64,000 bases of DNA, taken from contig NC_045138.2 of assembly GCF_008831285.2 (NCBI RefSeq), positions 8,246,001 through 8,310,000 on the forward strand. Direction: 5' to 3'. Shown here one piece after another: positions 11,967 through 58,805 of the stretch. Within the stretch, counting starts at the first letter, position 1. Every line of letters starts with the position of its first letter. The notes beneath the pieces were generated by a model. The model was not told the DNA's origin. It did no database searches and worked only from the letters and a program-made list of their open reading frames with translations. Both the position numbers and the translations under genes were made by a program. The stretch comes from Nymphaea colorata (taxonomy: Eukaryota).

Positions 11967-12620
11967 ATGGCATCTTCGAAAACCATCGTCACCATTCTGT
12001 TGGCGATGGCCATGGCCGCCGCTGCGTCTGCTGCCACATACACAGTCGGTGACAGCGCCGGTTGGATGATTCCGGGCACACCCACCTTCTACGACAAATG
12101 GGCCGCTTCCAAAACTTTTCGCGTTAACGACAAGCTGGGTGCGCAGCTCGATTCCTTCCCCCCCTCCCACCATTTCTTCTTCTTCTTCATGAAATTGAGA
12201 TTGATGTTTCTTCTTTTTTCTCCATTTGGTTTTTCTTCAGTTTTCAACTTCCCGGCGGGAGCGCACACAGCGGTCAGGGTATCCGAGAATGAGTACAAAG
12301 CTTGCACCTTCGCCAACCCCATGGAGAGGTATACAACAAGCCCAGCGACCGTCACGCTCAACGACACTGGAGCTCACTACTACCTCTGCGACGTCACCGG
12401 GCATTGCAGCGCCGGGCAGAAGGTCTCCATCAATGTCGTCTCTGCCGCTGCCTCTCCTTTACCATCGCAGCCAACTCCTGCTCCTCCTGTTGCCGGATCA
12501 GCACCAAGCACGTTGCCTACTCCATCCAGCCAACCGACTCCCTCTGCAGCTTCCTTCAGCAGAGGATTCAAATGCACCACCTTTCTGGCATTGGTGCTTG
12601 CCTTTACCTTTATGTGGTAG
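11967..12620 (+). CDS. Stellacyanin-type phytocyanin (blue copper protein), signal peptide, short AGP-like tail and GPI-type C-terminus; exons 11967-12138 and 12241-12620, 183 aa
   Basis: Plastocyanin-like domain (YTVGDSAGW...W...F.V.D.L.F.F); ligands H(AHTAV), C(YYLC), H(GHC), Q(GQKV); disulfide Cys pair; GT-AG intron 12139-12240 restores DKL-VFNF; hydrophobic N- and C-termini. Confidence 0.93.
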   Translation: MASSKTIVTILLAMAMAAAASAATYTVGDSAGWMIPGTPTFYDKWAASKTFRVNDKLGAQLDSFPPSHHFFFFFMKLRLMFLLFSPFGFSSVFNFPAGAHTAVRVSENEYKACTFANPMERYTTSPATVTLNDTGAHYYLCDVTGHCSAGQKVSINVVSAAASPLPSQPTPAPPVAGSAPSTLPTPSSQPTPSAASFSRGFKCTTFLALVLAFTFMW

Positions 12621-19006: not shown

Positions 19007-19317
19007 TAATTATTATCCGGTAGGACATGAGAACACTTGCAGATCAAATTCTATCCATCATGTGCTTGCATCGACAACAACCATCAGAGGCCCTCTTAGC
19101 TATGTTACCTAGAAATTGAGGGAGGTGGATGAATTTATATAGAGCAAATATCTTCAATGAGTGAAATAAGGCCAATAAAGATAATTCCCATATAACTAGC
19201 AAACTTCTAAAAGCAGGACTTCTGCATGTTTTCATATTGGAGAACATGCTTTTCAATATAAAATTCTTCAATGTCCACATTGTTTTCTCATCATTGAAGT
19301 TCTTTACTAGTTACAAT

Positions 19318-19775
19318 TAGGGATGTTCAATAAGTCAAGCCAGCTCAAGCTCGAGACAAACTCGATCATTTAAACTTGATTTGTTTAATAAACGAGTCAT
19401 GTTAAAGTTGAAAAATGAACTCGATTAACTTAACAAGTTGAGCTCGAGCAAAGGAGGTTCAACTCAACTAAACTCAATTAAGCTCGTAGAAAGAATATAT
19501 ATAAAATGCCTTGCACCATATTGTCATATGTACAAAAATATCCCGATTCGCTTCCTTGTGGTTGACAACCTTGATGTTCAAGGTTCAAACATGAGTGTCC
19601 TCAGACATATTAAAATAATTTTTAATGAATGGCTTAGCTAAGTGCAAACCCAGGTTAATGAATAAGCTTGGCTAAGGTTGAGCTTAATTGAGTCAAGTTC
19701 GAGCACCTATGCTCAAGTCGAGCCGAGCTCGAGCTCGAGTTCAGTTCTATGATACTCGAGCTGAGTTTGACTCTG
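19318..19775. mobile_element. hAT-type MITE with CTCGAG/GAGCTC subterminal repeats
   Basis: Starts TAGGGATGTTCAATAAGTCAAGCC; both ends rich in GCTCGAG; same family end at 24827 (reverse) and 58806. Confidence 0.6.
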
Positions 19776-20446
19776 TCCTCCACAATTTCAAGTGCGGATC
19801 TATTAGTATAACTGCACTTAATGGCAAACTTCATGACAATGATGCTTAGTCGAAATCTCTTCTCAAGTTGGGTTAAGCCATTGGGGTACACTTCAGCATA
19901 ATATTATGTTCCATGATAGAAATACCAGAAATAGAGGACAGCCAAGTTCACTATCAATCTATGGATTATGAATGTTAGAAAAATGATCAAATTTTACATG
20001 AAAAATGTCATGTAAACAAGCACCTAATAGATGATTGATGATGAGACATCTGGCTTCATTCTGCCAGCCCTATTCCTAAGGTTAAAAGGAGGTCAAAATT
20101 TTGAGAAAGTATTTCAAATGCAGCAAATAGAAAGCCATATGCCAAAGAAAGCTCTAGTAGATCTCTTCTTGAATTAGATTGACAAATTTGAGGCTCTATA
20201 AAATATCGATCAGCAAGAGGTGGATGACCAGGAACACTCAGCTCCTATTCTTGTAACCAAGTATGTATTCTATTGATTTGGCATGTAATATGGATCAATA
20301 TGAAGACTGGAGAAAGGATAAGGTTCACAAGTAAAAAAAGAAAGATATATCCAAATGTGACAAGTAGAATCACCGTATAGGAAAAGAAATAATATTGAAT
20401 CCTTTGTAAAATAGAAAGCCTTTAAAAACAGCTTATTTGTCCATCA

Positions 20447-25834: not shown

Positions 25835-26539
25835 TGTTGGGTTGGGTCCAGCTTCAAAAGAGGACCCGACCCGGCCCATCACTTAAGTGACGGGCGGGTG
25901 AAGGGGAGGGCACCCGATGGTGCCCCTTCCTCTTACGACGCCTCTCACATCTCTCTCTCTCTCTCTCGTTGTTCTCTTTTGGGGAAAAAGAGAAGGGGAC
26001 CTCTTGTGGCTGCATAGGGCAAGAAGAGAAGGAGAAGGAGAAGAAGAAGAGGAAGGCAAGGAAGAGAAGAAGGAGAAATCGCAGCAAGGTGTGTGGGTCC
26101 ATCGACACGCCAAGAAGAGAGAGAAAAGACAAAGAAGAAAGAGAAAATGAAGGGAGTCTTCATTGGGTGATTTCTTTTTTGAATATTTGGGGCTCTTTCT
26201 TTCATTCGCATAAGAGATTGTTATTGCTCTCTTGAGTTCACTGTTTTTCTTAAAACAGTAGGGATATTGTTGCTCGTGTATTTGGCTCCCTTTCTTGATA
26301 TATAGAAAGTCTCTCTTGCCCGTGGTTTTTTACCTTATTATTGGGGGTTTTTCCACGTAAATTTGTGTCTCCTATTTTTCTGCATCTCTAGCATATATTT
26401 TGATATATATTGCTGCAACATTGGTGTTGGAAATTCAATCTTATGCTCGTTGCCCTGTGATTCCATTTTTAGCAGTTTTGTGGTGGTTTGCTCTCTTTTA
26501 TTGTTATTGAGCATTCTTTTGGGGGACACGACTATAACA
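25835..26539 (+). repeat. 5' LTR
   Basis: Direct repeat of 30530-31234; about 22 substitutions by manual count, same length. Confidence 0.96.
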
Positions 26540-26599: not shown

Positions 26600-29500
26600 C
26601 CAGAAGCCAGCGAATATAACAGATAAAAAATGAAAGTTATTGGATAGGAAAACCATTGGCACCATCAGACAATGGTTAGATGACTGTGTTTTTCATTTGG
26701 TATCCGCAGAGACGAGCGCGAAGTCGTTATGGCAGAAGTTGCATGACCTTTACGAGAGGAAAACAGCTGGGAACAAGGCTTTCTTGATTAGGCAATTGGT
26801 AAATCTGAAACTTAGAGAGGGAAAACCAGTGTCAGAGCATTTGAATGAAGTGCAGAGCATAATCAATCAGTTGTCAGCCATGAAAATGATATTAGATGAT
26901 GAGTTACAGGCACTCTTGTTGCTTAGTTCTCTTCCCGACAGTTGGAAGACTTTAGTTGTTTCTTTGAGCAACTCTGCTCCAGATGGTGTGCTTACGATGA
27001 AGCATGTAACCAGCAGCATTCTAAATGAAGAAACAAGGAGAAAGTCTCTTGGTACTGGTAGCTCGCAAGTGCTAGTGATGGGAGACAGGGGCAGACACAA
27101 GAACCGTAACAAATGGCATGACAGGTCAAACTCTAGGTCCAAAACCCAAGATGACAGGTAAATGCTTTCACTGTGGTATTCTAGGGCACAAGAAGATTGA
27201 TTGCAGAAAATAGAAAGAAGAAAAAGAACAGAAAAAGAAGAGTCAAGAGAATGTGAATCCAAAAGAGTACACTGCAGTTGCTTCAGATGATGAGGTAGTG
27301 TTATTTTTATCTGAAGAAAATGATTGTCTTGCAGTTCAGAATGGTGATTCTACATGGATTTTAGATACAGAGGCATCATATCATGTCACACCATATAGAG
27401 AGTTATTCTTATCCTACAGAGCAGGTGATTTTGGAGTAGTTCACATGGGCAACAGTGATACTTCGAAGATTGTTGGGATAGGAGATGTTTGTATTCAGAC
27501 GAGCACAGGATGCAAATTGACTTTGGGAGATGTGAGACATGTTCCAGACTTGAGAATGAATTTGATTTCTGTAGGAAGACTAAGTGAAGATGGATATTGT
27601 ACTTCGTTTTGTCAGACAGGTTGGAAACTTACCAAAGGGGCACTAGTGTTGGCTAGAGGTGACAGATTTGGCTCTTTGTATGGGATGAAGTCTCGAATCA
27701 GTAGTGTGGATGTCAATGCAGTTACTGGTGGTACTTCGTCAGATTTGTGGCATAAGAGGTTAGGTCACATGAGTCAAAGAGGAATCGACTTACTCACCAA
27801 GAAGAATTTGTTACCAAAGACAGATGGTGCACAGATATCTCCATGTGATCATTGTTTGGTTGGTAAGTTGCATCGAGTTTCCTTTCATAAAAAGCGCTCT
27901 TCAAAAACTAAATATATTTTAGATTTAGTTTATTCAAATGTATGTGGACCTATAAATGTGACATCTAAAGGTGGAGCATCCTATTTTGTTACATTTATTG
28001 ATGATGCATCTAGGAAGGTGTGAGCCTTTACAATGAAAAGCAAAAGTGAAGTAAGTAGTATCTTCATGACTTTTCATGCAGCGGTTGAGCGCGAGACTGG
28101 TAAGAAGATGAAGAGACTACGTACAGATAATGGTGGTGAGTACGTAGCATCTTCTTTACGAGATTATTGTCTAAAGCATGGTATTAGACATGAAAAGACA
28201 GTTCCTTATACTCCACAACATAATAGAGTTGCAGAAAGGATGAATAGAACAATAATTGAGAGAGTTAGAAGTTTGTTATCTAGCTCTAAGCTGCCTAAGT
28301 ATTTTTGGGCAGAGGCAATGCGTACTGCAGTTTATTTAGTAAACAGGTCTCCTTCAGTGCCTCTAGATGGAGACATTCCACAGAGAGTTTGGTCAGATGA
28401 AGAGGTTAGGTATGATCACCTCAGAGTTTCTTGTTGCAAAGCGTTTATGCATGTACCTAAAGAACGTAGGACCAAATTAGATGATAAAGCTATTCCTCTA
28501 ATATTTCTTGGTTATGCAGATGATGAATTTGGTTACAGGTTATGGGATCCAAAGAATGACAAAATCTACAGGAGTCGTGATGTTATCTTCAGAGATGATC
28601 AGACTATTGAAGATGTCATGGGAGGTACGAAGTCAGGTGTGAATGCTAGTGGTATTCATGAGTCAACTTATGCAGAACCTGAAGAACTTTCATCTGAGCA
28701 TGGTGAGACTGATGAAGATGTAGAGGAAGAGGAAAGAGAGGTAGATGAGCAGTATACAGACGGCAGCCCTATGGAGACTCAAACTGATCATGAGCATGAG
28801 TTGGAGGGGGAGCTTCCTCCGCATTTAGAACCAATTGAGAAGCAATTTGGAAGAGGTAAAAGAATACGTATACCATCTACTAGATATTCTACTGATGAAT
28901 ATATTATATTTACAGATAGTGGAGAGCCAGAATGCTATGCAGAGGTGCTAGATGATGTGCATAAAGATGAATGGATTAAAGCTATGAAGGATGAGATGAA
29001 TTCTTTATAGAAGAATCACACTTTTGATTTGGTAGAGTCACCAAAGTGTTGCAGAACAAGTGGGTCTATAAGCTTAAAAATGAAGGTCAAGGCAAGTTGA
29101 AATACAAAGCTCGGTTAGTGGTGAAAGGTTTCAAGCATGAAAGAGGTATTGATTTTGATGAAATTTTTTCTCCTGTGGTTAAAATATCATCTATCAGGGT
29201 AATACTTGGTTTGGTGGCATGTCTAGATTTGGAGTTGGAGCAGTTAGATGTAAAAACTGCTTTTCTTCATGGAGATCTAGAGGAAGAAATCTACACGACA
29301 CAACCAGAAGGTTTTGTGGTTGCCAGGAAGAAACACATGGTTTTTAAGTTGAAGAAGAGCTTGTATGGACTTAAACAAGCACCTAGACAGTGATACAAGA
29401 AATTTGATGCATTTATGATAAATCAAAAGTATCGCAGGTCAGCCATAGATTATTGTGTCTACATCAGAGAGTTCTCATCAGGTAGCTTCATTATCTTGTT

Positions 29501-30479
29501 ATTATATGTAGATGTCATGCTTATTGTTGGACATGATTGTCAATTGATTAGCCAATTGAAGATCGATATGGACAAGTTCTTTGATATGAAAGACTTGGGG
29601 CTAGCACAACAATTGTTAGGCATGAGAATTGTTCGTGACAGGAAGGCCAAGAAGCTGTGGTTATCACAAGAGAAATACATTGAGAGGGTGCTTAGCAAGT
29701 TCAGCATGAAAGATGCCAAAACAGTAAGTACACCTTTAGCAGCACATTTTAAATTGGGAAATGAGCAATGTCCATCCTCAGCAGATGAGAAAGAAAGAAT
29801 GGAGAATGTTCCCTATGCCTCCGCAGTAGGGAGTCTTATGTATGCTATGGTTTGCACCCGTCCAGACTTGGCTTATGCAGTTGGTGTAGTTAGCAGGTTC
29901 TTGTCAGATCCAGGCAAGGAGCATTGGGCAGCAGTGAAGTGGATCCTAAGGTATCTGAAAAGTATTTCTAATTACTGTTTATGTTTTGGTGAATCTAACC
30001 CAGAGATACAAGGATTTGTTGATGCAGACATGGCAGGTGACTTGAACTCTAGGAAGTCTCTTTCTGGTTATGTTTTTACTTTTGCAGGGGGAGCTGTATC
30101 ATGACAGTCCATGCAGAAGTGTGTTGCTCTTTCCACTACAGAGGCAGAATATATTGCAGCAACTGAAGCTTGTAAAGAGTTGTTGTGGATGAAGAGTTTT
30201 CTTCATGATATATGCCTTAGTCAGAAGACCTATGTGTTGCATTGTGATAGCCAAAGCGCTATACATTTGGCGAAGAATTCAGCGTTCCACTCAAGGACTA
30301 AGCACATTGATGTCAGATATCATTGGATACGTGATGTGCTTGAGCAGAAACTGATTCAGTTAGAGAAGATACAGACAAAAAAGAATCCTGCAGATATGAT
30401 GACAAAGTCTTTACTTAAGGAAAAGCATAACATGTGTAGAGACTTAGTTGAGGTGACTGCCTTTAAGGCAGTGTATTAA
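26600..30479 (+). pseudogene. Copia gag-pol polyprotein, disrupted
   Basis: gag, CCHC knuckle (CFHCGILGHKKIDC), protease (WILDTEAS), integrase (WHKRLGH, LRTDNGGEY), RT (QLDVKTAFLHG, LLLYVDV), RNase H (ALSTTEAEY, CDSQSAI); in-frame stops at 28021, 29008, 29391, 30102 plus frameshifts. Confidence 0.95.
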
Positions 30480-30529: not shown

Positions 30530-31234
30530 TGTTGGGTTGGGTCCAGTCTCAAAAGAGGACCCGACCCAGCCCGTCACTTAAGTGACGGGTGGGTGAAGGG
30601 GAGGGCACCCAATGGTGCCCCTCCCTCTTACGACGCCTCTCACATCTCTCTCTCTCTCTCTCGTTGTTCTCTTTTGGGGAAAAAGAGAAGGGGACCTCTT
30701 GTGGCTGCATAGGGCAAGAGGAGAAGGAGAAGAAGAAGAAGAAGAGGAAGGCAAGGAAGAGAAGAAGGAGAAATCGCAGCAAGGTGCGTGGGTCCATCGA
30801 CACGCCAAGAAGAGAGAGGAAAGACAAAGAAGAAAGAGAAAATGAAGGGAGTCTTCATTGGGTGATTTCTTTCTTGAATCTTTGGGGCTCTTTCTTTCAT
30901 TCGCATAAGAGATTGTTATTGCTCTCTTGAGTTCACTGTTTTTCTTAAACCAGTAGGGATATTGTTGCTCGTGTATTTGGCTCCCTTTCTTGATATATAG
31001 AAAGTCTCTCTTGCCCGTGGTTTTTTACCTTATTATTGGGGGTTTTTCCATGTAAATTGGTGTCTCCTATTTTTCTGCATCTCTAGCATATATTTTGATA
31101 TATATTGCTGCAACATTGGTGTTAGAAATTCAATCTTATGCTCGCTGCCCTGTGATTCCGTTTTTAGCAGTTTTGTGGTGGTTTGCCCTCTTTTATTGTT
31201 GTTGAGCATTCTTTTGGGGGACACTACTATAACA
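30530..31234 (+). repeat. 3' LTR
   Basis: Direct repeat of 25835-26539, preceded by the PPT and followed by TSD CTGCC. Confidence 0.96.
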
Positions 31235-37220: not shown

Positions 37221-38550
37221 TTGAAATGGTTGATATCGACATGTGCAATGATGGCGAAGAATAACAGTGTTATTTGTTTTGGGTGTTTGTCTTCATCTTT
37301 TTTTTTGTTAAGACGATTACCTCAAACTAAGAGGACTGTTCATTCTTTTAGAGAACTTGGTCTTCTATTTGTTCAACTCATGCTTCAAGGTCATCATAGA
37401 AATTGTCTGGACTTGCTTTGTATGGATTGGCGCACATATATCACATTATGTAATACTCTAAGAACTAGGAATTTATTGGAGGATGCTCATGACATTAGTA
37501 TAGAAGAACAAACAGCTATATTTTTATTGACCATTAGACATAATGAACGCAATCGTGTCACTTACAATACGTTTCAACATTCTGGACAAACAATAGGTAA
37601 ATATGTTAGTCTTGTCCTACTAGCAATATGTGTATTGAGTAAGGACTACATCTGGCAGCCCAACAATGAGATGCCAACTAATATTCGACTATCTGAACGG
37701 TTCTTTCCATATTTTCAGGTAATTTCATAACCATAAATTCACCATGTCACATGCAAGATATCTAATTTGCATATGTGCATATATGATTGTTTATGAGAAA
37801 TTGATGGCATCTATATACCTATATGGATCTCAACATCAGATCAAGCAAGATTTTCCAATAGAAAAGGAGTCATCTCTCAAAATGTCACGGCTGTAGTTGG
37901 ATTCGACACTCAAATCCACTACGTCTTGGCAGATGGGAAGGAAGTACAACAAACTCAAGAGTATTATATAATGCACTTGATCATCCGACTGACCCATTTG
38001 TTGTGCCACAAGGTACGTACTTCCACCAAACATTGCATACATTTTTATTGACATACAGCAAGGTTTGAAGAATTTGTGTTCACTTGTAGAAAAATATTAT
38101 CTTATCAATAGAGGTTATCCAAACATTGTTGGTTTGCTAACACCTTATCAGAGGTATCATTATCATATGTCTGAGTTTAATGCACTTTGGCACGTACACC
38201 TAGAACTCCAGAAGAATTATTCAACCATAGGCATTCAACACTCTGAAATGTAGCAGAAAGCACTTTCGGTAAGTTGAAAGGACAATTTCTAATATTGAAA
38301 ATGCAAGTGCAATATCCATTCCAAAAACAAATTCAAATTATTTTTACTACATGTGTATTATACTACTTCATAATTGAACACAATCCAAATGCCGAGCAAT
38401 TTTTTGATGAAGATGCTCCTTCGAATGATAATGGTTTTGTAAGCGAACCCAAAATTGCAAGACAAACACATCAACGAGGAAGCAACAATTCTATGGGAAC
38501 AACTATAACAACTCAAATGTTTACAGACTATCAATTGAATAGTAAGTTTA
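37221..38550 (+). pseudogene. PIF/Harbinger DDE transposase relic (HARBI1/ALP1-like)
   Basis: Motifs ISIEEQTAIFLLTI..NERNR...FQHSGQTI, RFFPYF, IDGIYIP, QNVTAVVGFD..IHYVLA, KYYLINRGY, LFNHRHS, ESTFGKLKGQFLIL; frameshifts and stops; element termini not found. Confidence 0.85.
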
Positions 38551-40841
38551 TTTATCAATTGATTATATTTGCTTATGTATGTTTGACATCTATTTTGTTT
38601 TGAATAGGATAACAAAGATGAAGTCTTGCCAGAAGTATTATATGATATTCGAAGGTAGGTAACGAGACATATATAATAGTTGGGAGTGGTGCCAACCTTT
38701 AGTATATCGATAGAGGGGTGTCATCTTTAGATTGTTTGATACCTTTGAAGCAACATACTGTCACATGAATGAGTATCTCAACATGAAGTATGACATGCAC
38801 ATAGATAGACCTACAGACATTGACACAATGGCATTGCAAAGCAAGAACTAAAAGATATGAAGTTTGTTGAACATAAGTGCAGCCGCAAATGTTGGATTAC
38901 TTGTTTTGTGATTAACTATTTTCTTTGTTAGATCTGTACTCGTTAGACTCATATCCTAGATGGGCATGGTCTATCGTACTTGAACTAACAATATTGACAC
39001 TAACTCCTATGTTGAACATTGCTAAGTTTTGGTTGTGATTACATGGTTTGTTGGTCTTCAAACATATTGTATAACTTTGGTACATGTTTATGTATGTTAT
39101 GCCTATAAACTATGATGTGCATGGTAATTGGTTATGTATTTTGTTTTGTGGATATGTATTGTTAATTTGCATTTAGTTATATTGAATGACAGAACTTTTA
39201 GAAATTGGTGAAAATTGTTAGGTTGATTCTTCTCTACTTTTGGTTATTGTCTCACTATTGATTCTAAATTGACGTGGCATGTATGCTTGAAGCAATGTTG
39301 GCTTTTGCCCTCTAATGAATGCATGAAAAAATAGGACTTCCTTTATTTTGGTTTAATATGCCAATGTTGGCTTTGCTCTTTTGATTAATGCATCAAACCA
39401 ATTTGTGCATAATGCTATTTTGCAACTTTACTATCTTTGGTGGTAATGGTGATGATGGTGGTGAAACATTTTGTCACAACATCTAGTCATTTACATGTGA
39501 AGGCCTTTTTTCACTGCCATCTGAATGGACTCCATTAATTATAGAGCTCTAGCTGCAGTTCTAATGCCTAGATTCTGCAGATGCTTGCTTGTAGTCATGG
39601 ACAGGGAATGATTTTTTTTATCATCAGTGGACTTTGCATATACATTAATTTGACACTTTGCACAACAATCACCCGTGGCAGCTTTTTGTATGAACAGAGA
39701 CATGATGAAAAGCTTAAACAGTTGTGAACTTGTGATCTATTGGAACTTGTCTCACATCAGCATTTTTGACTTGATAATTGGTTGTTTCAGCTGAATGCCA
39801 ATGCGTGGTCAATTATCCTAGTCTCAAAGCTCCAAATTTGGTTTTTCTCAATAAACGTAGCCTTTTGTCTTGTGAACGTCCCTGCAATTATTGTGAACAT
39901 GGTTGCAATTATGGTGTCCTTTTGTGAACATCGTTACAATTATGTTCACCCAAATCTTGATGGTTTCGTGGGAATGCTCAAAATATTGGCGAAACAGTCA
40001 TTACCTGATTGTGTGGAAGTTCATATGAGAAAGAACCATAAGGAATCCTCACCATGCTGGATCTTTTTCCCATCGGTGTCAATTTTTCTGGCCTTCAATA
40101 GTAAACTCAATCTCTTTGTTTATATTTTTCTTGCCCTTTTTAATTGTTGTCTCTTTTTTTATAAGAGATTCTCTTTTATAAGTAATGCCGATGATCAGAC
40201 AAAAATATGCTTTGTTTTTTTTTTTTATATATCCGATTTTTTTGTTTACATGTTTTTCAGAGTTCATATATGCTTTGCGGATTTATAATTAAGGCATATG
40301 GTTGATGACATGAACAATGCAGCAAAAAAGAGCATTATCCGTGAAAAGTTCAATGCAACAGTCAAATATTTTATCCACGAAAATTTTTTCGCGTCCAACA
40401 GTCACCATCTTGGAACATCCATTCTCTTTTAAGGCTTCGTGATATTACCTACAGGCGTGTTTGACAGGGGAACACGCTGTCACGACACCTTGTCCACCGC
40501 AATTTTTTTTTTTTTGTCACATCCCCATGGATGCGGTGCTACAATGGTGAAAAGACGTCGATTAAACCAGCCGAGTCGCTCTGCCGCAAACAAGCAAAAG
40601 CCTTCTTACGCGACATGTCACCCTCCGGGACACCCTGCAGTGGCATTGCCGTAAATCGTTAGCTGGAAAAACGCTTGGAAACCTGCATATATTATATTCA
40701 AATGATCTAGGGATAAGAGTGGGTATATATATATGATAGTTTTTTTTATAATAAATTTATATATTTTAAATATTTTTATTAAACTAAGTCAGGCTGAATG
40801 CAAACATTTTGGTTGATGGGACATTAATTTAATTAAAGGGC

Positions 40842-44260: not shown

Positions 44261-45173
44261 ATGGCATCTTCAAAAACCATCACCAACGTTCTGTTAGTGA
44301 TTGTCATGGCTACCGCTGCGTCGGCTGCCACATACACAGTCGGTGACAGCAGCGGTTGGATCATTCCGCCCACACCCAACTTCTACGACACATGGGTCGC
44401 TTCCAAAACCTTCCGTGTTAACGACAAGCTCGGTGAGCAGCTCGATTCCTTTCCCCCCTCCCACCATTTCTTCTTCTTCTTCTTCTTCTTCTTGGAATCG
44501 ACTTATTAACGGTAATCTTTCTCCGTTTGGTTTTTGTTCAGTTTTCAACTTTCCGACAGGAGCGCACACAGCGGTCAGGGTGTCGGAGAAGGAGTACAAA
44601 GCTTGCACCTTCGCCAACCCCATCGAGACCTACAACACAGGCCCTGCGACCGTCACGCTCAAGGAAACCGGAGCTCACTACTACCTCTGCAGCATCCCTG
44701 GACATTGCTCCGGCGGGCAGAAGGTCTCCATCAACGTCGTCTCTGCCGCTTCATCGCCTCCACCATCAAAGGCGCCCTCTGCTCCGTCTCCGTCTCCAGT
44801 CGCCAGGCCGCCAACTCGTGTCGCAAACCCTCCCGCTTCCTCTTCTCCACCACCCATGGCCCCTTCTGCTCCATCACCATCTCCGCTCGCCAAGCCGCCG
44901 GCTTCCATCGCAACCCCTCCCGCTTCCTTCTCCATCCCACCTACCAAGTCTCTCCCTCCGTCCTTCCCACCTTCTTCTCTAGCATCTCCTCCTCCTCCTC
45001 CTGGATCACCTTCTCCCTCTGCTGGGACGCCTCCTTCTACTCCTGCTGCCGGAGCACCAGGCACGTCGTCTACTCCTCCCAGCCAGCCGACTGCCTCTGC
45101 CGCTTCCTTCAGCAGAGGATTCAAATGGACCACCGTCCTGGCGTTGGTGCTTGCCTTTACCTTTGTATGGTAG
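44261..45173 (+). CDS. Stellacyanin-type phytocyanin with long Pro/Ser/Ala (AGP/extensin-like) region and GPI-type C-terminus; exons 44261-44432 and 44542-45173, 267 aa
   Basis: Paralog of 11967-12620; GT-AG intron 44433-44541 at the identical codon position; H-C-H-Q ligand set (AHTAV, YYLC, GHC, GQKV); SPPP and SPPPPP motifs; hydrophobic tail. Confidence 0.93.
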
Positions 45174-47662: not shown

Positions 47663-47845
47663 AGGCATGGACGAAGCCAAAAATCTTTTATGAGGGAGGC
47701 CAAATTAAAGTTTTTAAATTTTGACTAAAGCTGAAAATCATTTTTCAAAATTTTTATATAAAACAAGTGAAATTTTCTAAAATTTATATGTAAATTTTTT
47801 TAAAAAAAATTGAAGTGAATCCAGGGCCCATGCGACCCCTACATT
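47663..47845 (+). mobile_element. MITE copy (family of 52274-52466)
   Basis: Near-collinear with 52274-52466, including CATTTTTCAAAATTTTTATATAAAACAAGTGAAATTTT and CCAGGGCCCATGCG. Confidence 0.7.
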
Positions 47846-48220
47846 GATGTGGAAAGAGCACTGAAATAGTAAGCTGTCGTGAGGTTCACATTTTTCAAAT
47901 AACCAAAAGTTTTTCCATCTTAAGAGAAGACTATGTCAGGCATAAAGGTTCATGCAGTTTCACCGCTCATTTTCAAAATGACCAAAATACCCTTGTTATT
48001 AAAAACTTGAGAAAATGGAAAGCAACTTTCTTAAGGCCCCGTTTGATAGCCGGGGTAAAATGAAAAGGGAGGGAAAATGCATCAAACGGGGTGAAATTCA
48101 CCCCGTTTAACATATAAGCGAGCGGGTGAAATTTCCGAGCTGACCGCTTTCGATTTTTCACTCTCACGCCCCGAGCATGTGGCCGAGACAGGGGAGGGGT
48201 TTCTGCAGCAAAGCACAAAG

Positions 48221-48342
48221 AAATGGAGGGTGAAGCAGGTGGTGCGGGAATAGCACGAAGGAATGGAGGGTGAAGAGCAGGTGGTGCGGGAAGAGCACGA
48301 AGGAATGGAGGGTGAAGCAGGTGGTGCGGGCAGAGCACGAAG
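48221..48342 (+). repeat. Three-copy 40-42 bp tandem repeat
   Basis: Units (G/A)AATGGAGGGTGAAGCAGGTGGTGCGGGAA(T/G)AGCACGAAG at 48221, 48261, 48303. Confidence 0.92.
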
Positions 48343-48980
48343 GAAGTGACGCCGATTTCATATCCATCTCAAAAATCGGGGCTTTACTCTTCTCCGTGGC
48401 GCTGGATTCTTCCCATTGACACTGCCGATGGCCTACCATAATGAAGGCTTCTCAAATTTCCCCCAATTCAAAAACCCTAATCACCCTCAAATAGAAATTG
48501 CAAAGACTGCTGGAAAAAGCTCGACTCTATGTAGCCGACTCAGAAAACCCCCAAAATCTATGGTGGATTGAATGCTCCTGGCTTCACTTGATGTGGAGGA
48601 TCCATGCAAAATCCCCTTACAGGACACAGTGGTGGGGCGAGAATTCGAGACCTTCATATCAAAAGATTAGAACACGCTGTGCAACGAAGAAGCAGCAGTG
48701 GGGCAAGGGCAATGACGGTGGGACGAGGCAGCGGTGGGGTGAAGCAGCAGATGATGAAAATGAGAAGGGGGAGACGAAGGGAGCCAGCAGAGGATGAAGA
48801 TGACAAGAGGAAGACGAAGGGAGCTCTAACGGGCAGAAAAGTGTTCCAAGGATTTCGATCACACCCCTCTTGGGTGATTTGATGAAATGCGATTATTGTC
48901 CCCAGATACTCCACCATCTGTTATTGTCCACAGAATGAGATGTGGGTGATTCAATACTCCACCATCTGCACAGGATAACT

Positions 48981-49225
48981 GGTAACGAACAGCTTGCTCG
49001 CAAGGTGTTCGATAAAATGCGCAAAAGAAGCATCGTCTCATGGAATGCCATGATTAATGGTTACTGCAAAGTTGGTGAGTTCAATGCGTTACTTGGGATT
49101 TTTAATAGTCTGTTGATGGGTGATTTGAAGCCCAATTTGAGCAGCTTAGTGAGCATTACAGCTGGTCAGTGTGGGTTTCCTGACATTGGCAGGTTGATTC
49201 ATTGCCAGGCTTGTAGATTGTGCTC
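48981..49225 (+). pseudogene. Captured pentatricopeptide-repeat (PLS-class PPR) gene fragment
   Basis: Translates GNEQLARKVFDKMRKRSIVSWNAMINGYCKVGEF...LKPNLSSLVSI...GRLIH, i.e. roughly two PPR motifs, with no rest of the gene. Confidence 0.85.
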
Positions 49226-50492
49226 ACCTCCTATTCAATTAGAAATATCAGTCGTTTCATGGATACTTTCATTGGAGGGTACACAAAGTTTTCTTGCTTT
49301 TTACCAGGTTAAATTTTTCCTGTGCGTCAAACAGGGTTAAATTTACCACGTTAAATTCTTCGTGTGCATCAAACAAAGCCTCATGTTGGAACAAAGAGAA
49401 ATTTCATCCTGTAAATTTTTCCAGAAAAATTTACCATGGTAAATTTACCATGTTAAATTTCACCCGACGATCAAACGGGCCCTAAAGGATGAAAAAGACC
49501 TAGCGAGGACTATACGTGGTGCCTTGTAAGTCATCAACCATTTAACATAGTGGTCGCACCTACGTTTCTCTATTCTTTATATTATTATAAGATATACAAA
49601 GTTATAGTATAAATCTTGCATCTTTGAAGGAAAGCGATTCAAGTCATCATTGGAAATGAAAAATTTCATCAGAATGCCGCGTAAGGAATTGATATGATGA
49701 GAGTGAGTTTTCTCGAGCCTTTCAAACAAAAAAGAACCAACGTTTCCATGGCAATTTCATGGTACCGTAAGTGAAACTTTATCGATGAGAAAAAAATGTG
49801 CTCATGTTTTTCTATAATAATTTCTATTTTATTCATTTTTCTTTAATTTATTCTTTTTAAGGTTTTCTATGTAAAGGCATAGGCTCTCATCGAGGTGGTA
49901 GTGGTATGATGAAAAACTCGTATTTTTCACAATAATTTCCATTTTATTTGTTTTTGCCAACACATTCCATTCCTGGACGAACAAAATTAGATGTCAAATT
50001 GTTTGGGTTCTTTGATTCTGCTTTGTGCAAACACCTCTCCAGACCTTTAAAACAAGAAACTTAAATGAATGTGAAAGATTCAAAATGAAAAGAATGTCAG
50101 TATATAATAAAAAGGAAAATAGTTGAGAAGGTCAAGACTGATGAAAGGAATCTCACTAATATCATCATCAAAATGGACTGCATTGCCGTGTTTTCTTTTT
50201 TATTGCAAGTGGAATGACTGGCCCTCCAGGATTTAAAGGCCACCGATATATTCGGAGCGGACATGGAGGTGACGGCCGCCGGGGTGTTTACTTTTCTATC
50301 TATCAGCAATGAAACTGCAGTCATCAAAACTGCGCTTTTCCCTTTCACGGGTCAGGGAACGGTTTCTTGTTTGAAAAACTCGTTTCTATCATATAAAAAG
50401 AAATAGGAACTTTGATTCTCTTGTTCCACTGGTTCCAACCGAATCAAACGCCTTCATGTTCCAAATATGCTCCTCTCTGTCAGGTTTCTATG

Positions 50493-50810
50493 TAGGGAAT
50501 GGGTATGGGGGGTTGCCCGACCTCACCTAGTAATCTTTTGGGGTCGGGTCAGGCCATAGCTTGTGGTAAATAAAAAAAGCCTGAGCCCAGTCTCAATTAT
50601 AATAAAATTAATATATATATATATATATTTCAAAATAATTAAAAATTAAACTTATATTTTATTATGTAACATTTAAAAAAACCATACCTAAATATAATAA
50701 AAAATTAAAAACAAGTTACGAGGTCAAGTTGGACCAACCCGAAAAATTACGAGGCTGGTTGCGGTGGCTGATTTCACTGGCCCTAATCCTATTCCGATGC
50801 CCACCCTTTT
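50493..50810. mobile_element. Probable MITE (GGCC/CCGA-rich ends, AT-rich core)
   Basis: TAGGGAATGGGTAT ... ATGCCCACCCT imperfect inverted ends; layout like 2878-3144. Confidence 0.5.
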
Positions 50811-52273
50811 TGTATGGGGTATTCAAATCATTTACAAAAAAAAGAAAGGATATTCCTAGCTTTTTATAAAAAGTTATTTTTGGATTTTCTTTTTGCACAC
50901 GTCTTGTCATTTATGCCACAACCATGTTAGGTGCGAAAAGGATCAAAATGGTCTTAACATAAAAAGTTAAGGGGGCCGATAATGTCTTCCTCTAATTCAG
51001 TTTTGCAAAAACTAGGTTTTAAAAATATCAAGTTTTTTAGGGATTTTTAATTTTTTTTTTTTTGTGACACATCCAAAACCTGAATAACTTAAAAGAAACC
51101 AGCGTTTTCACTCGCTTATATAAAACTAGATTTTGTAAAAACCCAAATGACATCCAATCACTCCAAAAACCTGTTTTTAAAGTGTAACCCAAATACAAAA
51201 AAAAAAAAGTGATAAAAGGAAAATTTTAAAGAACAAAATGACCCTTCTGAGGCCCGCTTGGTGTGCGCCTTATGAAGCATTATAACTGAATACAGTTGTT
51301 GACTTGTAACCTCTGAAGTATTGCAAAATTTTCTTGAAGTCCTGAATTTCCCAATTAATTTTATGCGAAATTACCTCAGAAGAGCCACAATTTTTGGGAA
51401 CTTTCAGCGATTTCGAATCGTGCGGGCCCTGGGAGCCTTGCAAGTGTCAACGACTGAGGTCAGTGGTCGACCCGAACATGCACAGTGCTCTAATCTATTT
51501 TTCATTAGTCTTCACATATTTAGGGTTTGAGTTGTTTCGTGAATTTAAGCTTACATACTTCCATAAATCATTTCAAATCTTGCTCGATTTTATCAAATCC
51601 TATGATCTAATTTGTAGATCAACTTCTAAAATATGAATTGATGCATTGAAGTTAAATTCTTCTTAAGGCTTTCGAAAAACGAACGAGCTTTTTTATTATG
51701 ATTTTTTCCTTAGTTGGTTTTTGCCAAATGTATTCCCATTAAGGTTTTCTCCTAACTAGAGAAAGAACTATGGTTTCTTCAAAGGGGCCGAAATATTTTT
51801 AAATAAACTTTAAAACATTTCACAAAGACGATTTTTTTAAAATTTTTACATAGATCAATTTTTTAAAATGGTGATTGATCAAGCATGTATTTGTGAATTG
51901 TTTTATTGGCTTAAGTGGCTAGTTAAAATATCTGAATGTTAGCTAGTTATTTATAAATTTACCAAAAGCAGAATGGATATTAATAAGCTTCTCTTCTCTC
52001 TCTCTCTCTCTCTCTCTCTTTTTAACATAAGAAAGGTAAACGCCTTAAGATTACAACCAAAAAGTCCCTACGTTTAAGATATAAGGTTAAAAGGGGTTTG
52101 TCGAATGAAAATATCCCCAAAAGAAGCTGTTCAAATTTGAAAAAATTACAACTCGAGGCTTAACATTCAGGCAAATAACAATTCGCACCAAACTGTTGCA
52201 TCTTCACAAATCACTACCCAATTTTCATCAAAACTCTCAAAATATCACCTTCATCCAACACTGTTGGTGTAGG

Positions 52274-52466
52274 TAGGGCGGAGCCAGAAATTTTTTATGA
52301 GACGGCTGAATTAAAGTTTTTAATTTTTGAGTAGGGTCGAAATATCATTTTTCAAAATTTTTATATAAAACAAGTGAAATTTTTTAAAATTTACATGTAA
52401 ATTTTTCTTTTAAAAAAATTGAGATGGGGCCAGGGCCCATGCGGGCCTACCTTGGCTCTACCCCTG
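52274..52466 (+). mobile_element. hAT-like MITE, best-preserved copy of a family present several times in the window
   Basis: Ends TAGGGCGGAGCCA / TGGCTCTACCCCTG; related copies at 41655, 42622, 47663 and an inverted partial at ~52780-52867. Confidence 0.7.
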
Positions 52467-54901
52467 GTTAAACTTGTGTTACCACAATGCTTTGAGTCTT
52501 TTTGACTATTATACTCTTGCAAATTTTTTCCCCAAATAACTGCACAATCGTTTATCTCTCTCGCCAATCTGAGCAAACCAACCAGCAAGATAAGGCGGGA
52601 TACAAACACCGCCTCTGACCTAAAATCCTTCTCTCCACTATCAGCATATTACAATTAATCTTTGTCTCCACAATCTCTTGACCAACAGTGACATTCATCG
52701 ACCAGCTTCGTTTTGCCTCTGAAGTTATTAGACTAGAGCATCAATTTGGATCTCAATCTAAATCTACCGACTATAATGCTGAATTTTGAAAATTGATATT
52801 TCGGCTCGTGTCAAAATTTAGAAACTTTAATTCGGCCCCTTATAAAAAATTTCTGGTTCCACCCCTGGTGGTCAAGGATTAGGATGAGGAAGGTATCGTG
52901 GCTGAAGATAAGATTTAAGAAATTAAGACAGCTGACAATAAAGTTGATAAAGCTAAGATTAATGGAAGATTGGATAAAGATCTTGTACAGAACTGTTCCA
53001 CAAAATAAGATAAACAAATACAAAACCCAAAACATGAGGAAAAGATCATGACATGTAACTGTAATTTTAGTTTATAAAGGTACCTTTGATATTGCTGAAC
53101 TATCACTAGATTGAGAGAGCTTAGAGGTCATGGTCGTAGAGTCTCACTGATTCAAACCACATTTATTAACCATTGTTCCTTTTCTTCCTTCATACATTTG
53201 TATGGTATCAGATCATCCAGTCTATACTCTCTCAAGGTCTTTGTGGTTACGTTACAATGGCCGGAAGGGCGACTAATGGAGACAACAACAATGAGATAAA
53301 CAACACATGGAATCATGGTGATAAAAACATTCATAGTACATCTATATATAATTCCTTTCCCATTTCATCAACACTCACAAATTCTGGTTGTTAAATTAGA
53401 TACAAAAATTTTCTTCTCTGGGAGTCACAATTTATGCCTTTGTTAAAACTTACGATCTCATGGGTTGTACTGATGGTTCTAATGCCTATCCAATTGAATA
53501 TCTTATACCTAGAGACAATACTAAAGTTAAGGATCCGGTATAATGATAATTGGCATTGAGTGGACCAACTTCTATTGAGTTGGATCATGTCTTCTCTTGC
53601 TGATAATGTACACTGTCAGGTGGTCAGATTAATTCCTCATTTGTTGTTTGGACAACATTGAAAAGATGTATGTTTATGTCTCCCAAGCTAGGGCTAAGAT
53701 ACAACAAATGAAAGAACAACTTCAAAAATCTTAAGAAGGGAACCAAGTCCATAAATGAATATTTGCGTAGGGCTACGAATATTGCACACCATCTGCCTTA
53801 GTGACAAAGCCGGTTGCTAAAGAAGATTTGATTTCGTATATAGCTGCTGGTTTGCCTAATACCGAGTATACATCTTCACGAAATGCATTAAATGTTCATG
53901 TGTATCCAATTAGTCTTGAGGATCTACTTGAAATGCTTTTGTTGCATGAAATGAAAATTCAAGAAGTTGAAGCTGACATTAACCAAGCATCCAACTCTAT
54001 GGCAAACCTAATGTTTAAACCACAATAGTACAATCAATGGAAGCGATTCAACAATAATAGGAATATGAACAATAGTGAAGGAAATCATAACATGGGCAAT
54101 TAGAAGTAATAGTTCTAATGGTTCTCTTACTTGTTTTGCTCGTGGAAATAACAGACATAAGGTAGCAAATTGTAGGACTGTTTGTCAAGCATGCAGGGAC
54201 TGTTTGTTAAGCATGCAAAGGCCTATGGGTTTCAAATGGGACATGGCGCTTTCAAATGCAAGGCCTATTGGTTTTAGAAAGAAGAACAGGTTGGACCTAA
54301 AGTTCATACTTCCATGGTAATGTGGACAACTGAGAGTGTGAGGTAGTACCCTGACTGAGGAGCCACATAACATTGTACAACATATTTCAACAATTATCAT
54401 CATTACAGACATTGCCATGGTGAGAAACTCAAAGTTGGAAATGGTGTAGGACTAGAAATAAAAAATGTTGATAATATTATTTTTCCCTTCCAACACTTTA
54501 GATTCTTTTATGAAGGATATATTACATGTTCAATATATCACAAAAAACTCACTTTTGATTCATCAATTCACTAATGACAACAATGTTCTCTTTGAATTTC
54601 ACAAGGATATCAAGACCAATTGGCTACTTCTAACTGGCAAGATGATCAAGGTCTCTATAAATTAGACTTGGGATAGATCAAACATCATAAAACTGAAGCA
54701 CTCATTGGAGAGTGAACCACACTTCATCAGTGGCATCATCACCTCGGGCATCCTTCTCTTAGAATAGCTAGACATGTCATTAATAAACATTGATTGCATG
54801 CCTTCCATGAAAAGGCTTTTTTAAGTTTGTAAATCTTGTTAGATGGGAAAAAGTTGTGAACTTCCCTTCTCATCTATGTCAAGTAATTGGGTGAACCATT
54901 A

Positions 54902-57324
54902 GGGCCCGTTTTATTGTCGGGTGAAATTTAACGTGGTAAATTATCATGGTAAATTTTTCTGGAAAAATTTACGGGATGAATTTTCTCCCTCTTCCAATCT
55001 GAGGCCCTGTTTGATGCACAGAAAAAATTTAATATAGTAAATTTAACCATGTTTGATGCATAGAAAGAATTTAACATGGTAAATGTTGTTTTTTTTTCTT
55101 CTCGTCCGCAATGATTTTACTGCAACCACTAAGGCAGCTGCAGAGCTCCATTTGATCCAACCCAGCGAAGATTCTTAATCCATAAAATAGGATTTCATTT
55201 CCTTGTCTTCACATCGAAGCGAGCATGCAAAGATTTATGTAGCAGGAACACGAGGCTGATGTAAATTAGGATTTCATTTCCTTGTCTTCACATCGAAGAG
55301 AGGGCTGATTTTGTAAAGTTGATTGTATTTTTAATTGTCAATTTGTCATAGTTGGAGAACAAATAGGAATTGCGTTTTATTTAACCTAAAACCACAAAAT
55401 TTTCATAACAGTGTCACCAAGACACTGAAAAGAACCTCCTTTTCTGGATATGTCATCAAATTTCAAAATAAGCAGACATGAAAATGCAGTACAAACTGTA
55501 ACATTTTCATACATGCTCTGCCTATGCCATAACAGGCATGTCCTTGAGCCATGGATCCAGCTGCTTGCCAATTGAGTAAACTATGAAACCAATGTTCCTC
55601 AGGTGCTCAGTGTCAACAACATTTCGGCCATCAAACACAAATGCAAGCTTCTGCATGTTATCATAGATCCTTTGGTAATCTAGGTTCTTGAACTCATCCC
55701 ACTCAGTTAAGATGCAGATGGCATGTGCATCCTTTGTTGCTTCATATGCATCCCACACAACACTCACCTGCTTGACGGCAGTGGGGCTTCTTGGCTGCAG
55801 ATGAATTGGATGGTCCCAGTCAAATTTCTTCATGGAAAGGTCCCTTTGGATCTGATCCTCAGTCACTTGAGGATCATAGATGCTGACGTTTGCCTTGTCA
55901 CCAAGAAGGCCACTGCAGAGGTGTCTCCCTGGTGTTTCCTGTGTTTTTCTTGAATGCAAAGCCGAGGACCGCAATTTTTTTACCAGCAACAGTGTTGAAC
56001 ATGGACGAAACTACCCGGTTAACGAACCGGCTCTTCTGGTATTCATTGATCTTGATGACCTGCTTCCAATAATTAGCAACCTCAGGCAAGCCGTTGCACT
56101 GACAGATGTATACCAGGTTCAGGATGTCCTTCTTGAAGCATGATCCACCAAACCCAACACTAGCATTCAAGAACTTCGGACCAATTCTTGAATCCTTCCC
56201 CACAGCATGGGAAACTTCTGTAATATCTGCTCCTGTGGCTTCACAAAGTGCAGACATTACATTCGTAGAGGAGATCCTCTGTGCCAAGAAGGGAAAAAAC
56301 GAATTAGCCTGGGTCGAAATGCATTCAACTTGACTCTCGTTTTTCAGCTCCAAATCTGTGAAAGACGTCGTGAGAACACTAGATCTGGCTACATATTATG
56401 AAACTAGTTGATGAATCAGTCAAAATCTTCAGATCTCCCAACATGGTTGCCAGGAAAATCTCATAGCAACACCAAAAAGACTATATAAAAGAACAACCAG
56501 ATGGTAAAATCAGCAAATTTCTAAAAAAAATATGCACGCTTAAGGAAAAAAACAGGACATCAAAGAATCGCAGGGATTCAACAAAGAACCTGTAATAGAT
56601 AATTTTCATATTGTTCTACAAATTCTCAGCGTTGAAGATAGGCACTTCATGTTACCATTCTTCAATTTCTTCTCGGAAGCACCCAATTCATCTCCAATCG
56701 CCATATTTCTTCCAAACTAAAAACTGAAACGTAATAAAAGAAAAGGCACTTGAGTAAGACAGGAAAGAAGAAGAAAACCATGAAACTTCGGATACCAAAA
56801 TAATTAAGTTACTGAATTACACAAAATTCCTGCTAATTGATCCAGAAAACGAAGATCCCCAAAAACAAAAACTCATCACCATCAGCGTCTGTCCAAAACG
56901 AAGCAGATTCTCGGGAAGTTTCCGAGTTGGACTGAACATCCATTAACTACTCAAGAGTCTTGACACTCACATCTCCAAGAGAGAAGACGAACCCATGAAT
57001 TGATCCATTGACAAAACCAGTCAGTGTGAAAAAGGAACCCGAGGGGAGCGGCGAGGGTTGAGCAGCGACGGTGAGAGCGGCGACGGCGGAGCGGCGACGA
57101 TGAGCAGGCACCTATTCTCCAATGCGAGGGAGCTCGTCGATTGCAGAGGAAGACGCATGGGTGAATGCCTTCGAAAGGAAAATATCTTTCACCCGCTCAC
57201 TTTATCGTAAACGGGGTGAAATTTCACGCCGTTTGATGGTTTTTCTGTCGGGCGGGTGAAATTTCACCCGCCCGTATGTATTTCAACCGCTCCACCTATT
57301 TTTTCTGGGCAATCAAACGGGCCC
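54902..57324 (-). mobile_element. Non-autonomous PIF/Harbinger element carrying captured gene sequence (pack element 2, 2423 bp), same family as 48035-49482, opposite orientation
   Basis: TIRs GGGCCCGTTTTAT / ATCAAACGGGCCC; TSD TTA at 54899-54901 and 57325-57327; first ~180 bp are the reverse complement homolog of 49300-49482 and last ~150 bp match 48035-48135. Confidence 0.94.
55522..56290 (-). pseudogene. UGD: Captured 3' half of UDP-glucose 6-dehydrogenase, frameshifted
   Basis: [85 protein letters not shown]-stop; N-terminal NAD-binding domain absent; frameshift after RETP (~55919). Confidence 0.93.
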
Positions 57325-58805
57325 TTAGATTTATGTTTTTATGAGGTGTGGAAGGTACCCCAATTTCATTGTTGCATGGATATTATTATTACGTTTGTTT
57401 TATTGATGGATGTTTTTGTTTTACATGGATATTTGTTATTACATTTAAGTTTGAAGTGCTATCGAGGCAGGCAAGAGAATGAGGCAAGTCAAGCGACATG
57501 GGAAATCACTTCTAGAAAGACAACCTCCAAAGCCCAAAGATAAAACAATGAAGATGGAAGAGGTACAAAGGCCTTCAAAAGCTTAAGAATCCAACCTCCC
57601 AATTCATGGCAGTTCCGTTTCTCAGTTCGAAAAGTGTATTGTTGGCACCAGCTTGGAGCACTAAGCAGCTCTTGATTCAAGGGTTCGGCTATAGCCGAAT
57701 GTGAGGGAAAGATCATTTATACCGATGCTGAAAAGATCATTTTATCAGGTAATAGGTAAGTTAACGCATTACAAAGTGAGTGGGGAGGGGAATACATGTT
57801 AGTCTCTCAATATCATGATATCCTTAATTTACAGCATCACAATGCTCATTAATTTTAGTTTATAAGTTGAAAGTGCTTATTTTTGGGTTATAATAATCAG
57901 CATAAGGGTCATTTATCTCTCAACCAAGGTCGAATAGGTTATCTATATATCACAATGTTGTATTTGATGAACATGTTTTTCCCTTTTAAGGAAAGTAGTC
58001 TAAAACTAATCTCAGAACAATACACCATCACCGGTTTCTGTTCCTTTTCCTACATCACCAACATTTGAACCCCTTCTGTCCACCACATTGTCCCTTCTCT
58101 ATTTAACCCTAAAACACAATTACTACCAACTGCTACATTTGATGAATAATTAATCATGAAGCTGTGACACCTTCCTCTGCCCTTGAACCCAAGCCAATTC
58201 TTTTTGTCCCACCTATGTGAAATCAGGCTATGACCACTCATGTCTTGATTGGATCTCATAAAGCTAAGCCTTGCCACACCTAATGACATTCTCCCTCCAC
58301 AGTCTTACTGAATTATTTAGCAACAAAAAACTAATGTCCTTAGCTCAAGACTCCAAATTCTCGTCATGGAATCAAACTATGGAGGCTGAGTACTGAGCCT
58401 TAATAAGAAATCACATTTGGACTTTTGTTTCCCCTGCCTCTCATTACAATGTTATTGATAAAAAAATGAGTTTATAAAATTAAACAAGCTAATGGGACTA
58501 ATGAGAGATACAAGTTTCGTTGGGTTTTATTGGTTCTAAAGTTTGACACGTCTTTGTTTTTGTGGATTACAAATACTCACACTATTTACTTTTTCATATA
58601 TGTATATGATATTTTAATTTTTGAAAGCTCTTCCTCTGTTATTGATTCTTGCATTCGGTAAATAAGTGCATAGTTTGTTATTAAAGACCTTGGGTCTTTT
58701 TCTCACACAACACAAATACATGCTTGATCATCTCACATAGTTTGGTCATTAGGACGTCAAAGGTGTTGATATGCCTCTTTCTCATGGAGTGGCTCTATCT
58801 TGTTA

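Follow-up and report, generated by a model that had tools for sequence, protein, structure and literature searches.

Two elements in the window (the whole 64,000-nucleotide stretch of Nymphaea colorata DNA analysed here), E1 and E2, very probably belong to one high-copy, non-autonomous PIF/Harbinger family, whose mosaics of host-gene pieces were likely copied from DNA, likely multiplied by a transposase from outside, and are now decaying. The TIRs, the TSDs, the common ends, cargo that comes from several donors and is present in several copies, retained introns, a frameshift and deletions were all observed directly (Table 1). E1 and E2 form a new family within the known class of Pack-PIF elements, of which they are an ordinary example.

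Table 1. Features of E1 and E2 (positions in the window)
Feature	Position	Strand or direction	Evidence
E1 left TSD, TAA	48032..48034	.	
E1, non-autonomous PIF/Harbinger (Pack-PIF), 1448 bp	48035..49482	+, A-to-B	TIRs, TSD, interior depth
E1 end A: TIR, inward TIR-like motif at 48081, imperfect palindrome	48035..48135	+	Core depth 5657 (run X1)
51-bp piece of expressed host gene	48436..48486	-, likely B-to-A	RNA peak
PPR gene piece	48993..49262	+	Pfam; donor residues ~89-163 and 203-207
E1 end B: TIR and 42-bp subterminal units	49300..49482	+	Match to E2 end B
E1 right TSD, TAA	49483..49485	.	
E2 left TSD, TTA	54899..54901	.	
E2, non-autonomous PIF/Harbinger (Pack-PIF), 2423 bp	54902..57324	-, A-to-B	TIRs, TSD, 0-difference junction contigs
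E2 end B	54902..55083	-	Match to E1 end B; depth 8274 at 54981
UDP-glucose dehydrogenase (UGD) piece, residues ~222-480 to stop codon	55522..56292	-	Pfam, tblastn vs 480-aa UGDs
Third captured piece, apparently non-coding, expressed locus	56293..56518	.	RNA
Spliced exon with ATG, both flanking introns retained	56590..56723	-	RNA loose ends
E2 end A: TIR and perfect palindrome at 57254-57269	57187..57324	-	
E2 right TSD, TTA	57325..57327	.	

Element ends, sequencing depth and proposed origin

The first 11 bases of the TIR are those of the maize PIFa reference TIR, and the 13-bp TIR pair of each element has one mismatch. A scan of the window with the 12-mer TIR, allowing up to two mismatches, gave 7 matches (shuffle mean 2.63; 0 of 100 shuffles reached 7); the four with 0-1 mismatch are the E1 and E2 ends, and these same four are the only ones flanked by TAA or TTA. 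An earlier reading, made from the sequence alone, had the coordinates, TIRs and TSDs of both elements exactly right (48035-49482, TAA/TAA; 54902-57324, TTA/TTA), and its assignment of both to one PIF/Harbinger family is borne out by the TIRs, the TAA/TTA TSDs and the PIFa match. It had also described two conserved ends, which holds for end B (86% identity over 183 bp between E1 and E2), but end A is less alike than was implied, its top local match being 87% over 60 bp with a large indel. Similarly, the palindrome attributed to end A is perfect, at 16 bp, in E2 only, and the E1 version is one base shorter. The interiors were said to be unrelated, and blastn indeed finds no match between them. 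Contigs from run X1 with 0 differences span both E2 junctions and the E1 right junction; the E1 left junction is not counted as bridged because only 25 letters fall inside. Positions 48035-57324 were rejected as a single composite element because the outer flanks, TAA and TTA, do not form a TSD.

Sequencing reads from 6 of 24 listed runs were compared (run X22 contributed only 25 reads). The ends are at ~160-2,300x single-locus depth and the cargo at 10-39x (E1) and 4-28x (UGD). These ratios are approximate: read depth does not translate directly into copies, X1 offers three different values for a single locus (8.9, 13.5 or 34.5), and contigs collapse variants. In X1 the depth steps from 13.5 and 8.9 in the E1 flanks to 343-351 in its interior, with up to 20,843 at its end B, and from 34.5 in the E2 flanks and 0-difference junction contigs to 105-247 per contig in its interior. 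The E1 interior is multi-copy in another organism as well (run X5, 22 vs 4.9). Interior depth and two sister-copy proteins, P0155 and P0280, indicate that the cargo-bearing element itself is repeated. Because end depth greatly exceeds cargo depth, most family members would differ in their interiors, and a large share of them may be short MITEs. At 49483 and 49485, respectively, 13 and 14 X1 contigs leave end B for dissimilar flanks (agreement 0.45). One X5 contig follows the E1 right flank to 49484 and then continues for 443 letters that do not align to end B, which on this side is the pattern expected of an empty site.

Do these depths reflect transposition of the element or multiplication of the region that holds it? 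Transposition after capture is the better account of the multi-copy cargo; that the host region was instead duplicated, in segments or in tandem, or multiplied through polyploidy is improbable. The two X1 flank depths that are ~four-fold apart (8.9 vs 34.5) and the two phytocyanin paralogues in the window are what local duplication or polyploidy could give, but the depth steps fall at the element edges, and segmental duplication is disfavoured because flank depth would then climb along with the cargo. We consider it very improbable that the ends arose as four independent MITE insertions around resident gene remnants, an outcome that the sequence-only reading had itself named as fatal to its view. 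End depth far above cargo depth would fit such MITEs; however, every end carries a single outward-facing TIR, the TSDs match within each pair, and the cargo is multi-copy where the flanks are not. The X5 contig that departs from the E1 right flank may also speak against them. A hint in the same direction is that the two E2 flanks weakly resemble neighbouring stretches of a single decayed copia pol (8 and 11 of 300 shuffles for the best of three frames in each case; tblastn and Pfam rve gave no support for copia in the right flank).

For one transposing family, the favoured reading, capture would have been stepwise, by template switching in gap repair after excision; an autonomous PIF would have mobilised the elements in trans, and the captured pieces would then decay neutrally. 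No cargo junction of E1 or E2 carries a TIR-like motif; had a compound-transposition event taken place, its internal TIRs might since have been lost by deletion. At 37.2-38.6 kb the window contains a PIF-like transposase remnant (PF13359, E 2.4e-6), which has no inverted ends matching E1 or E2. Scans of metagenome contigs with the end-B motif pattern gave 0 matches.

Captured host-gene pieces

E1 is a mosaic of part of a PPR gene and 51 bp from a second gene that is expressed, and E2 is a mosaic of frameshifted UGD residues 222-480, a spliced exon with both its introns and a third piece. The PPR fragment and the UGD 3' half had been recognised previously, and Pfam confirms both (PF13041, E 1e-9; PF00984 and PF03720), each reading A-to-B; a six-frame Pfam scan of both interiors gave only these and one chance match at E 0.85, with no transposase or ORF1 match. 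Local donors were rejected and the donors placed outside the window because neither interior has a blastn match in the rest of it. The claim of repeated gene capture is supported. The PPR donor is identified, and donor RNA breaks at the cargo edges, which points to cargo copied from donors elsewhere. The further claim that cargo sits nearer end B is correct for the PPR piece (275 bp from end B, 959 bp from end A) and the UGD piece (620 and 1032 bp), but two of the three pieces that had been overlooked are nearer end A.

The PPR donor is P0271, a Nymphaea protein of 596 aa with 85% identity to the E1 piece. The piece has lost 6 bp at 49161 and an internal stretch at 49207/49208. P0155 and P0280 are proteins of sister copies that are annotated as PPR in two Nymphaea species. 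P0280 (N. thermarum) consists of donor residues 28-207, then E1's junction, then an 11-residue tail; among 127,930 window frames the top two matches to this tail are both end-B copies (scoring 44 and 32, against 21 for the third), and the stop codon comes from end B. The RNA peak on the 51-bp piece has loose ends left and right, with 20 and 25 reads in X21, and also in one X18 contig; the direction of the piece is deduced, the RNA library being unstranded. We take the piece to be, likely, the 5' UTR and start codon of a gene that may be Di19-like; a literature search on the short motif behind this reading returned nothing relevant.

An 11-bp deletion at 55918 throws the UGD piece out of frame. 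Among the matches listed, 120 plant UGDs have 85-90% identity to it and no single donor stands out. Donor UGD RNA has loose ends at both piece edges, 55522 (287 reads) and 56292 (133 reads), and runs on in frame upstream of 56292. Of the eight UGD differences from RNA that are listed, six change a residue, a partial count as regards neutral decay. The third piece has ~30-fold RNA, every read of which carries the letters of a DNA contig of depth 32.7, and no open frame of note was found in it. The exon is delimited by loose RNA ends, with 63 reads breaking off at 56590 and 40 at 56725, where the minus strand has GT and AG; both adjoining introns are kept, and therefore capture was at the DNA level. 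The exon may be EMC6-like; a homology search with its frame gave no candidate.

Cargo direction and transcription

Three of the five captured pieces read A-to-B and one likely reads B-to-A, so that four are orientable. Three of four gives a two-sided p of 0.625, and even three of three would give 0.25, for pieces that are not independent within one element; P0155 and P0280 add no independent count because they repeat the same capture event. The directional capture bias that had been proposed is not sustained by these counts, and the pieces most likely face either way at random, or with only a weak bias. The GC-rich, leader-like blocks reported near end A are mutually unrelated and of opposite composition: read A-to-B, one is 29% and the other 66% pyrimidine. 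Pyrimidine skew was dropped as a marker of their direction because the window's own phytocyanin leaders are purine-rich.

RNA over the cargo stems almost wholly from other loci: that over UGD lacks the letters of the E2 copy, and at almost every diagnostic site listed the RNA does not show the letters of the window itself. The suggestion of chimeric transcripts is not supported at those sites, and what was found is low-level RNA of an E1 sister (a 661-nt X18 contig and 2 X21 reads with a common skip of 48703-48785). RNA on the A side of E2 is only ~2-fold.

A true A-to-B bias, with a promoter in end A, a stop and terminator in end B, and sense cargo that is favoured and yields chimeric transcripts, is possible but unlikely. 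All three coding pieces (PPR, UGD and exon) read A-to-B, P0280 terminates at the end-B stop, the E1 sister is transcribed, and maize Helitrons show 78.6% sense capture in the portion of Muyle et al. (10.1101/777037) used here. The same portion describes Pack-MULEs as lacking orientation bias, and the 51-bp piece that likely reads B-to-A, the p values above, the single capture event behind P0155 and P0280 and the slight E2 A-side RNA all weigh against it. Equally doubtful is a one-way expression cassette that captures or keeps A-to-B coding cargo, receives its stop and C-terminus from end B, is transcribed as a chimera in some sisters and persists across Nymphaea. If true, a cut-and-paste superfamily would show an orientation bias of the Helitron kind. 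The difference between ends A and B does give a TIR element a direction in this family, and such unlike ends make a clean test system for orientation bias in gene capture.

Relation to known elements

Gene capture had been regarded as less well known for Harbinger than for Pack-MULEs, CACTA and Helitrons, but maize and rice have Pack-PIF elements (Gisby and Catoni 2022, PMC8903248), and transduplication by PIF elements has been described for grapevine (Benjak et al. 2008, PMC2528002); the comparisons below refer to portions of these papers. Like the maize and rice elements, E1 and E2 are non-autonomous, have TTA/TAA TSDs, gene pieces inside and a TIR matching the PIFa query, and lie close to another family member. 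Zm-Pack-PIF cluster 18 has stepwise cargo, as E1 and E2 probably do, there from two genes, but is ~0.5 kb long, whereas E1 and E2 are 1.4-2.4 kb with 2-3 donors per element, and local PIF pairs in maize have the same orientation in 12 of 13 cases, whereas E1 and E2 are inverted (PMC8903248). Grapevine Pifvine-3 also holds host exons and introns common to several copies, but as an extra 5' region beside canonical ORFs, unlike E1 and E2 with no transposase or ORF1 match (PMC2528002). As with the maize Pack-MULEs and Helitrons of Muyle et al. (10.1101/777037, in part), the decaying fragments could feed siRNAs against their donors.

The family extends Pack-PIF gene capture to the water lilies, an early-diverging lineage of flowering plants, with multi-donor cargo that is amplified and common to more than one species. 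It is also an annotation hazard: the sister copies P0155 and P0280 are named PPR proteins in public databases.

Structure of the elements and size of the family

Both elements, E1 and E2, are real and lie exactly where the sequence-only reading had placed them. The 12-mer terminal inverted repeat (TIR) has seven matches in the window at two or fewer mismatches, a number reached by none of 100 shuffles; the top four of the seven are the ends of E1 and E2, and only those four are flanked by TAA or TTA. Bases 1-11 of this TIR are the maize PIFa reference TIR as given in the accessible part of the PMC8903248 supplement. The interiors had been called unrelated, and they indeed give no alignment with one another. 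Of the two conserved ends proposed, end B stands (183 bp aligned, 86% identity), but end A is alignable across only 60 bp (87%). Because contigs of sequencing run X1, possibly the sample from which the window came, span both E2 junctions and the right E1 junction with no differences, the elements are not assembly artefacts.

Features of the window
Feature	Position	Strand	Remarks
E1	48035-49482	+	1448 bp; TAA target-site duplication on both sides
51-bp second piece of E1	48436-48486	- (likely)	RNA peak, loose ends on both sides
E2	54902-57324	-	2423 bp; TTA target-site duplication on both sides
Spliced exon in E2	56723-56590	-	RNA ~60-fold; loose ends on AG and GT
Third piece of E2	56293 to ~56518		RNA ~30-fold; letters as in a contig of depth 32.7
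UGD piece of E2	56292-55522	-	residues ~222-480; Pfam and protein-to-DNA alignment
Decayed copia-type retroelement around E2	53600-54901, 57325-57450		gag and GAG-pre-integrase matches
Decayed PIF/Harbinger-like transposase	37221-38600		with introns; PF13359, PF04827
Short repeat family	47698-47830, 52276-52465, 52782-52864		probably MITEs
Copia-type LTR retrotransposon coding region	26634-30479		near-identical repeats on either side (~25,850-26,330 and 30,550-31,020)
Copia-type LTR retrotransposon coding region	14773-18108
Phytocyanin paralogues (plastocyanin-like, PF02298)	11838-12620, 44261-45173		Pro/Ser-rich tails

Depth and junction data come from reads or contigs of six of 24 sequencing runs aligned to the window. 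In X1, where single-locus depth is 8.9-13.5 near E1 and 34.5 near E2, the core of end A is covered at 5657 and end B at 8274-20,843. These values exceed single-locus depth by a factor of ~160-2,300; all such fold values are rough, since depth does not equal copy number. The E1 interior has a depth of 343-351 (10-39 times single-locus) and UGD (UDP-glucose dehydrogenase) contigs 134-247 (4-28 times, donor counted in). Thirteen and 14 X1 contigs exit end B at 49483 and 49485, respectively, into unlike flanks (agreement 0.45). In X5, from another organism, the E1 interior has a depth of 22 versus 4.9 for its flank, and 14 contigs exit end B at its inner edge (49300; agreement 0.58). Since end depth greatly exceeds cargo depth and contigs leave end B at its inner edge, the majority of family members have interiors other than the E1 and E2 cargo, genic or not.

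Sister copies of E2 carry differing internal deletions (56417-56523, 56066-56223 and 56701-57118; depths 132-160), so this subfamily either is still diversifying or comprises several lineages. X1 contig depth is ~9 over 49439-51985 versus 34.5 over 52812-54970, a difference that points to polyploidy, hemizygosity or local duplication. In X2, one haplotype or copy is identical and another is diverged.

Elements of this class are already described: maize and rice have Pack-PIFs (PMC8903248), grapevine shows PIF transduplication (PMC2528002), and the SirenScan study, as far as accessible, ties Nymphaea siren loci to hAT elements. A literature search, with most subscription journals and Repbase outside it, found no description of the E1/E2 family.

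Captured gene pieces and their transcripts

A Pfam search places the PPR piece on the plus strand of E1. It derives from P0271 (596 aa; 85% identity), which bears the name Nymphaea colorata PPR At4g19191-like and of which residues ~89-163 and 203-207 are present, with deletions at 49161 and 49207. This donor puts the window within Nymphaea or close to it. The 51-bp piece has loose ends in 20 and 25 reads of RNA run X21, plus one contig of X18, a presumed RNA run. Its minus-strand reading ends with an ATG, and the donor letters past it resemble what we take to be the N-terminus of a Di19 protein; a literature search on the donor's short motif gave no confirmation of this name. This piece likely reads from end B to end A (B-to-A), and only likely so because one hand-derived plus-strand frame is also open, with a stop just past the piece, and the X21 library is unstranded.

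Two database proteins derive from sister copies of E1. P0155 (120 aa; UniRef, N. colorata) shows 91% identity across 93 residues, including the non-donor upstream part of E1, and P0280 (N. thermarum, 197 aa) runs from donor residues 28-207 (93%) through the junction of E1 into an 11-residue tail. Out of 127,930 window frames, the two end-B copies rank first and second as matches to this tail. Judged from the make-up of these proteins, the PPR capture is common to the two species. It gives predicted chimeric proteins; both are gene predictions and do not imply translation.

Coverage of UGD at the listed sites is ~170- to 360-fold in X21, of which about 6% was used. The RNA letter differs from that of E2 in 359/360 reads at 55562, 313/313 at 55913 and 306/307 at 56101; 225 of 309 reads contain 11 bases that E2 lacks (others are clipped there), and six of the eight differences listed change a residue. 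Reads exit at 56292 (133 reads), with UGD going on in frame, and at the stop codon at 55522 (287 reads). The match stops exactly on that codon in DNA (an X1 contig start) as well as in RNA. The break may have occurred at the stop codon itself, or else the true donor may be a near-identical paralogue whose 3' UTR differs. Loose RNA ends on minus-strand AG and GT show that the direction of the spliced exon is A-to-B and that both introns were taken up along with it, hence capture as DNA. The exon presumably resembles EMC6; a homology search with its frame gave no candidate. The third E2 piece lacks a notable open frame and an assignable direction.

At listed E1 sites the window letter is missing from all X21 reads (10/10 at 48372, 27/27 at 48443, 6/6 at 48972, 9/9 at 49021 and 17/17 at 49385) or is retained in some (4/11 at 49056, 1/5 at 49091). 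An E1 sister copy is present in RNA at ~3-4-fold, with a skip that recurs in two reads of X21 and in an X18 contig of 661 nt. RNA depth is 0 across 53044-54713, a modest argument against contamination by DNA. In X22, three reads have the E2 letter at 56310 and span the UGD junction, but on one side they extend for only ~25 letters, too little to count. Chimeric transcription had been proposed for these elements; there is low-level RNA of the E1 sister, but the window's own letters are mostly absent from X21 at the listed E1 and UGD sites. A related end-B variant (49335-49459) lies inside long X18 contigs (records of 2526 and 934 letters; presumed RNA), which suggests family ends inside host transcripts.

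Cargo direction and mode of capture

The cargo had been thought to read A-to-B and to sit nearer end B. PPR, UGD and the exon do read A-to-B, but two pieces, the exon and the 51-bp one, are closer to end A. With the latter counted as likely B-to-A, three of four orientable pieces read A-to-B (two-sided p 0.625), and 3/3 would give p 0.25; the proposed directional bias is thus neither demonstrated nor excluded. The GC-rich leader-like blocks near end A are unrelated between E1 and E2 and opposite in skew. In maize, the accessible portion of 10.1101/777037 reports an orientation bias for Helitrons and not for Pack-MULEs; those of PMC13317346, PMC3288121 and PMC5861414 have nothing further on PIF cargo direction.

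Repeated gene capture, also claimed earlier, is borne out: cargo from several donors was taken up as DNA and is present in multiple copies, in elements whose structure and decay are directly observed. Capture may have been stepwise, by template switching during gap repair, which is favoured by the shortness of the pieces, their several donors and the absence of TIR-like motifs at the cargo junctions of E1 and E2. The neighbouring-insertion model (PMC8903248) is a possible alternative. Mobilisation would require a transposase in trans. The window's decayed PIF/Harbinger-like transposase (37.2-38.6 kb) revealed no ends matching those of E1 and E2; its own ends, which were not found, seem to be of another type.

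The two E2 flanks resemble neighbouring parts of pol (the statistics are weak). The short repeat family is of very high copy, with X1 depth >13,000 near 52,300.
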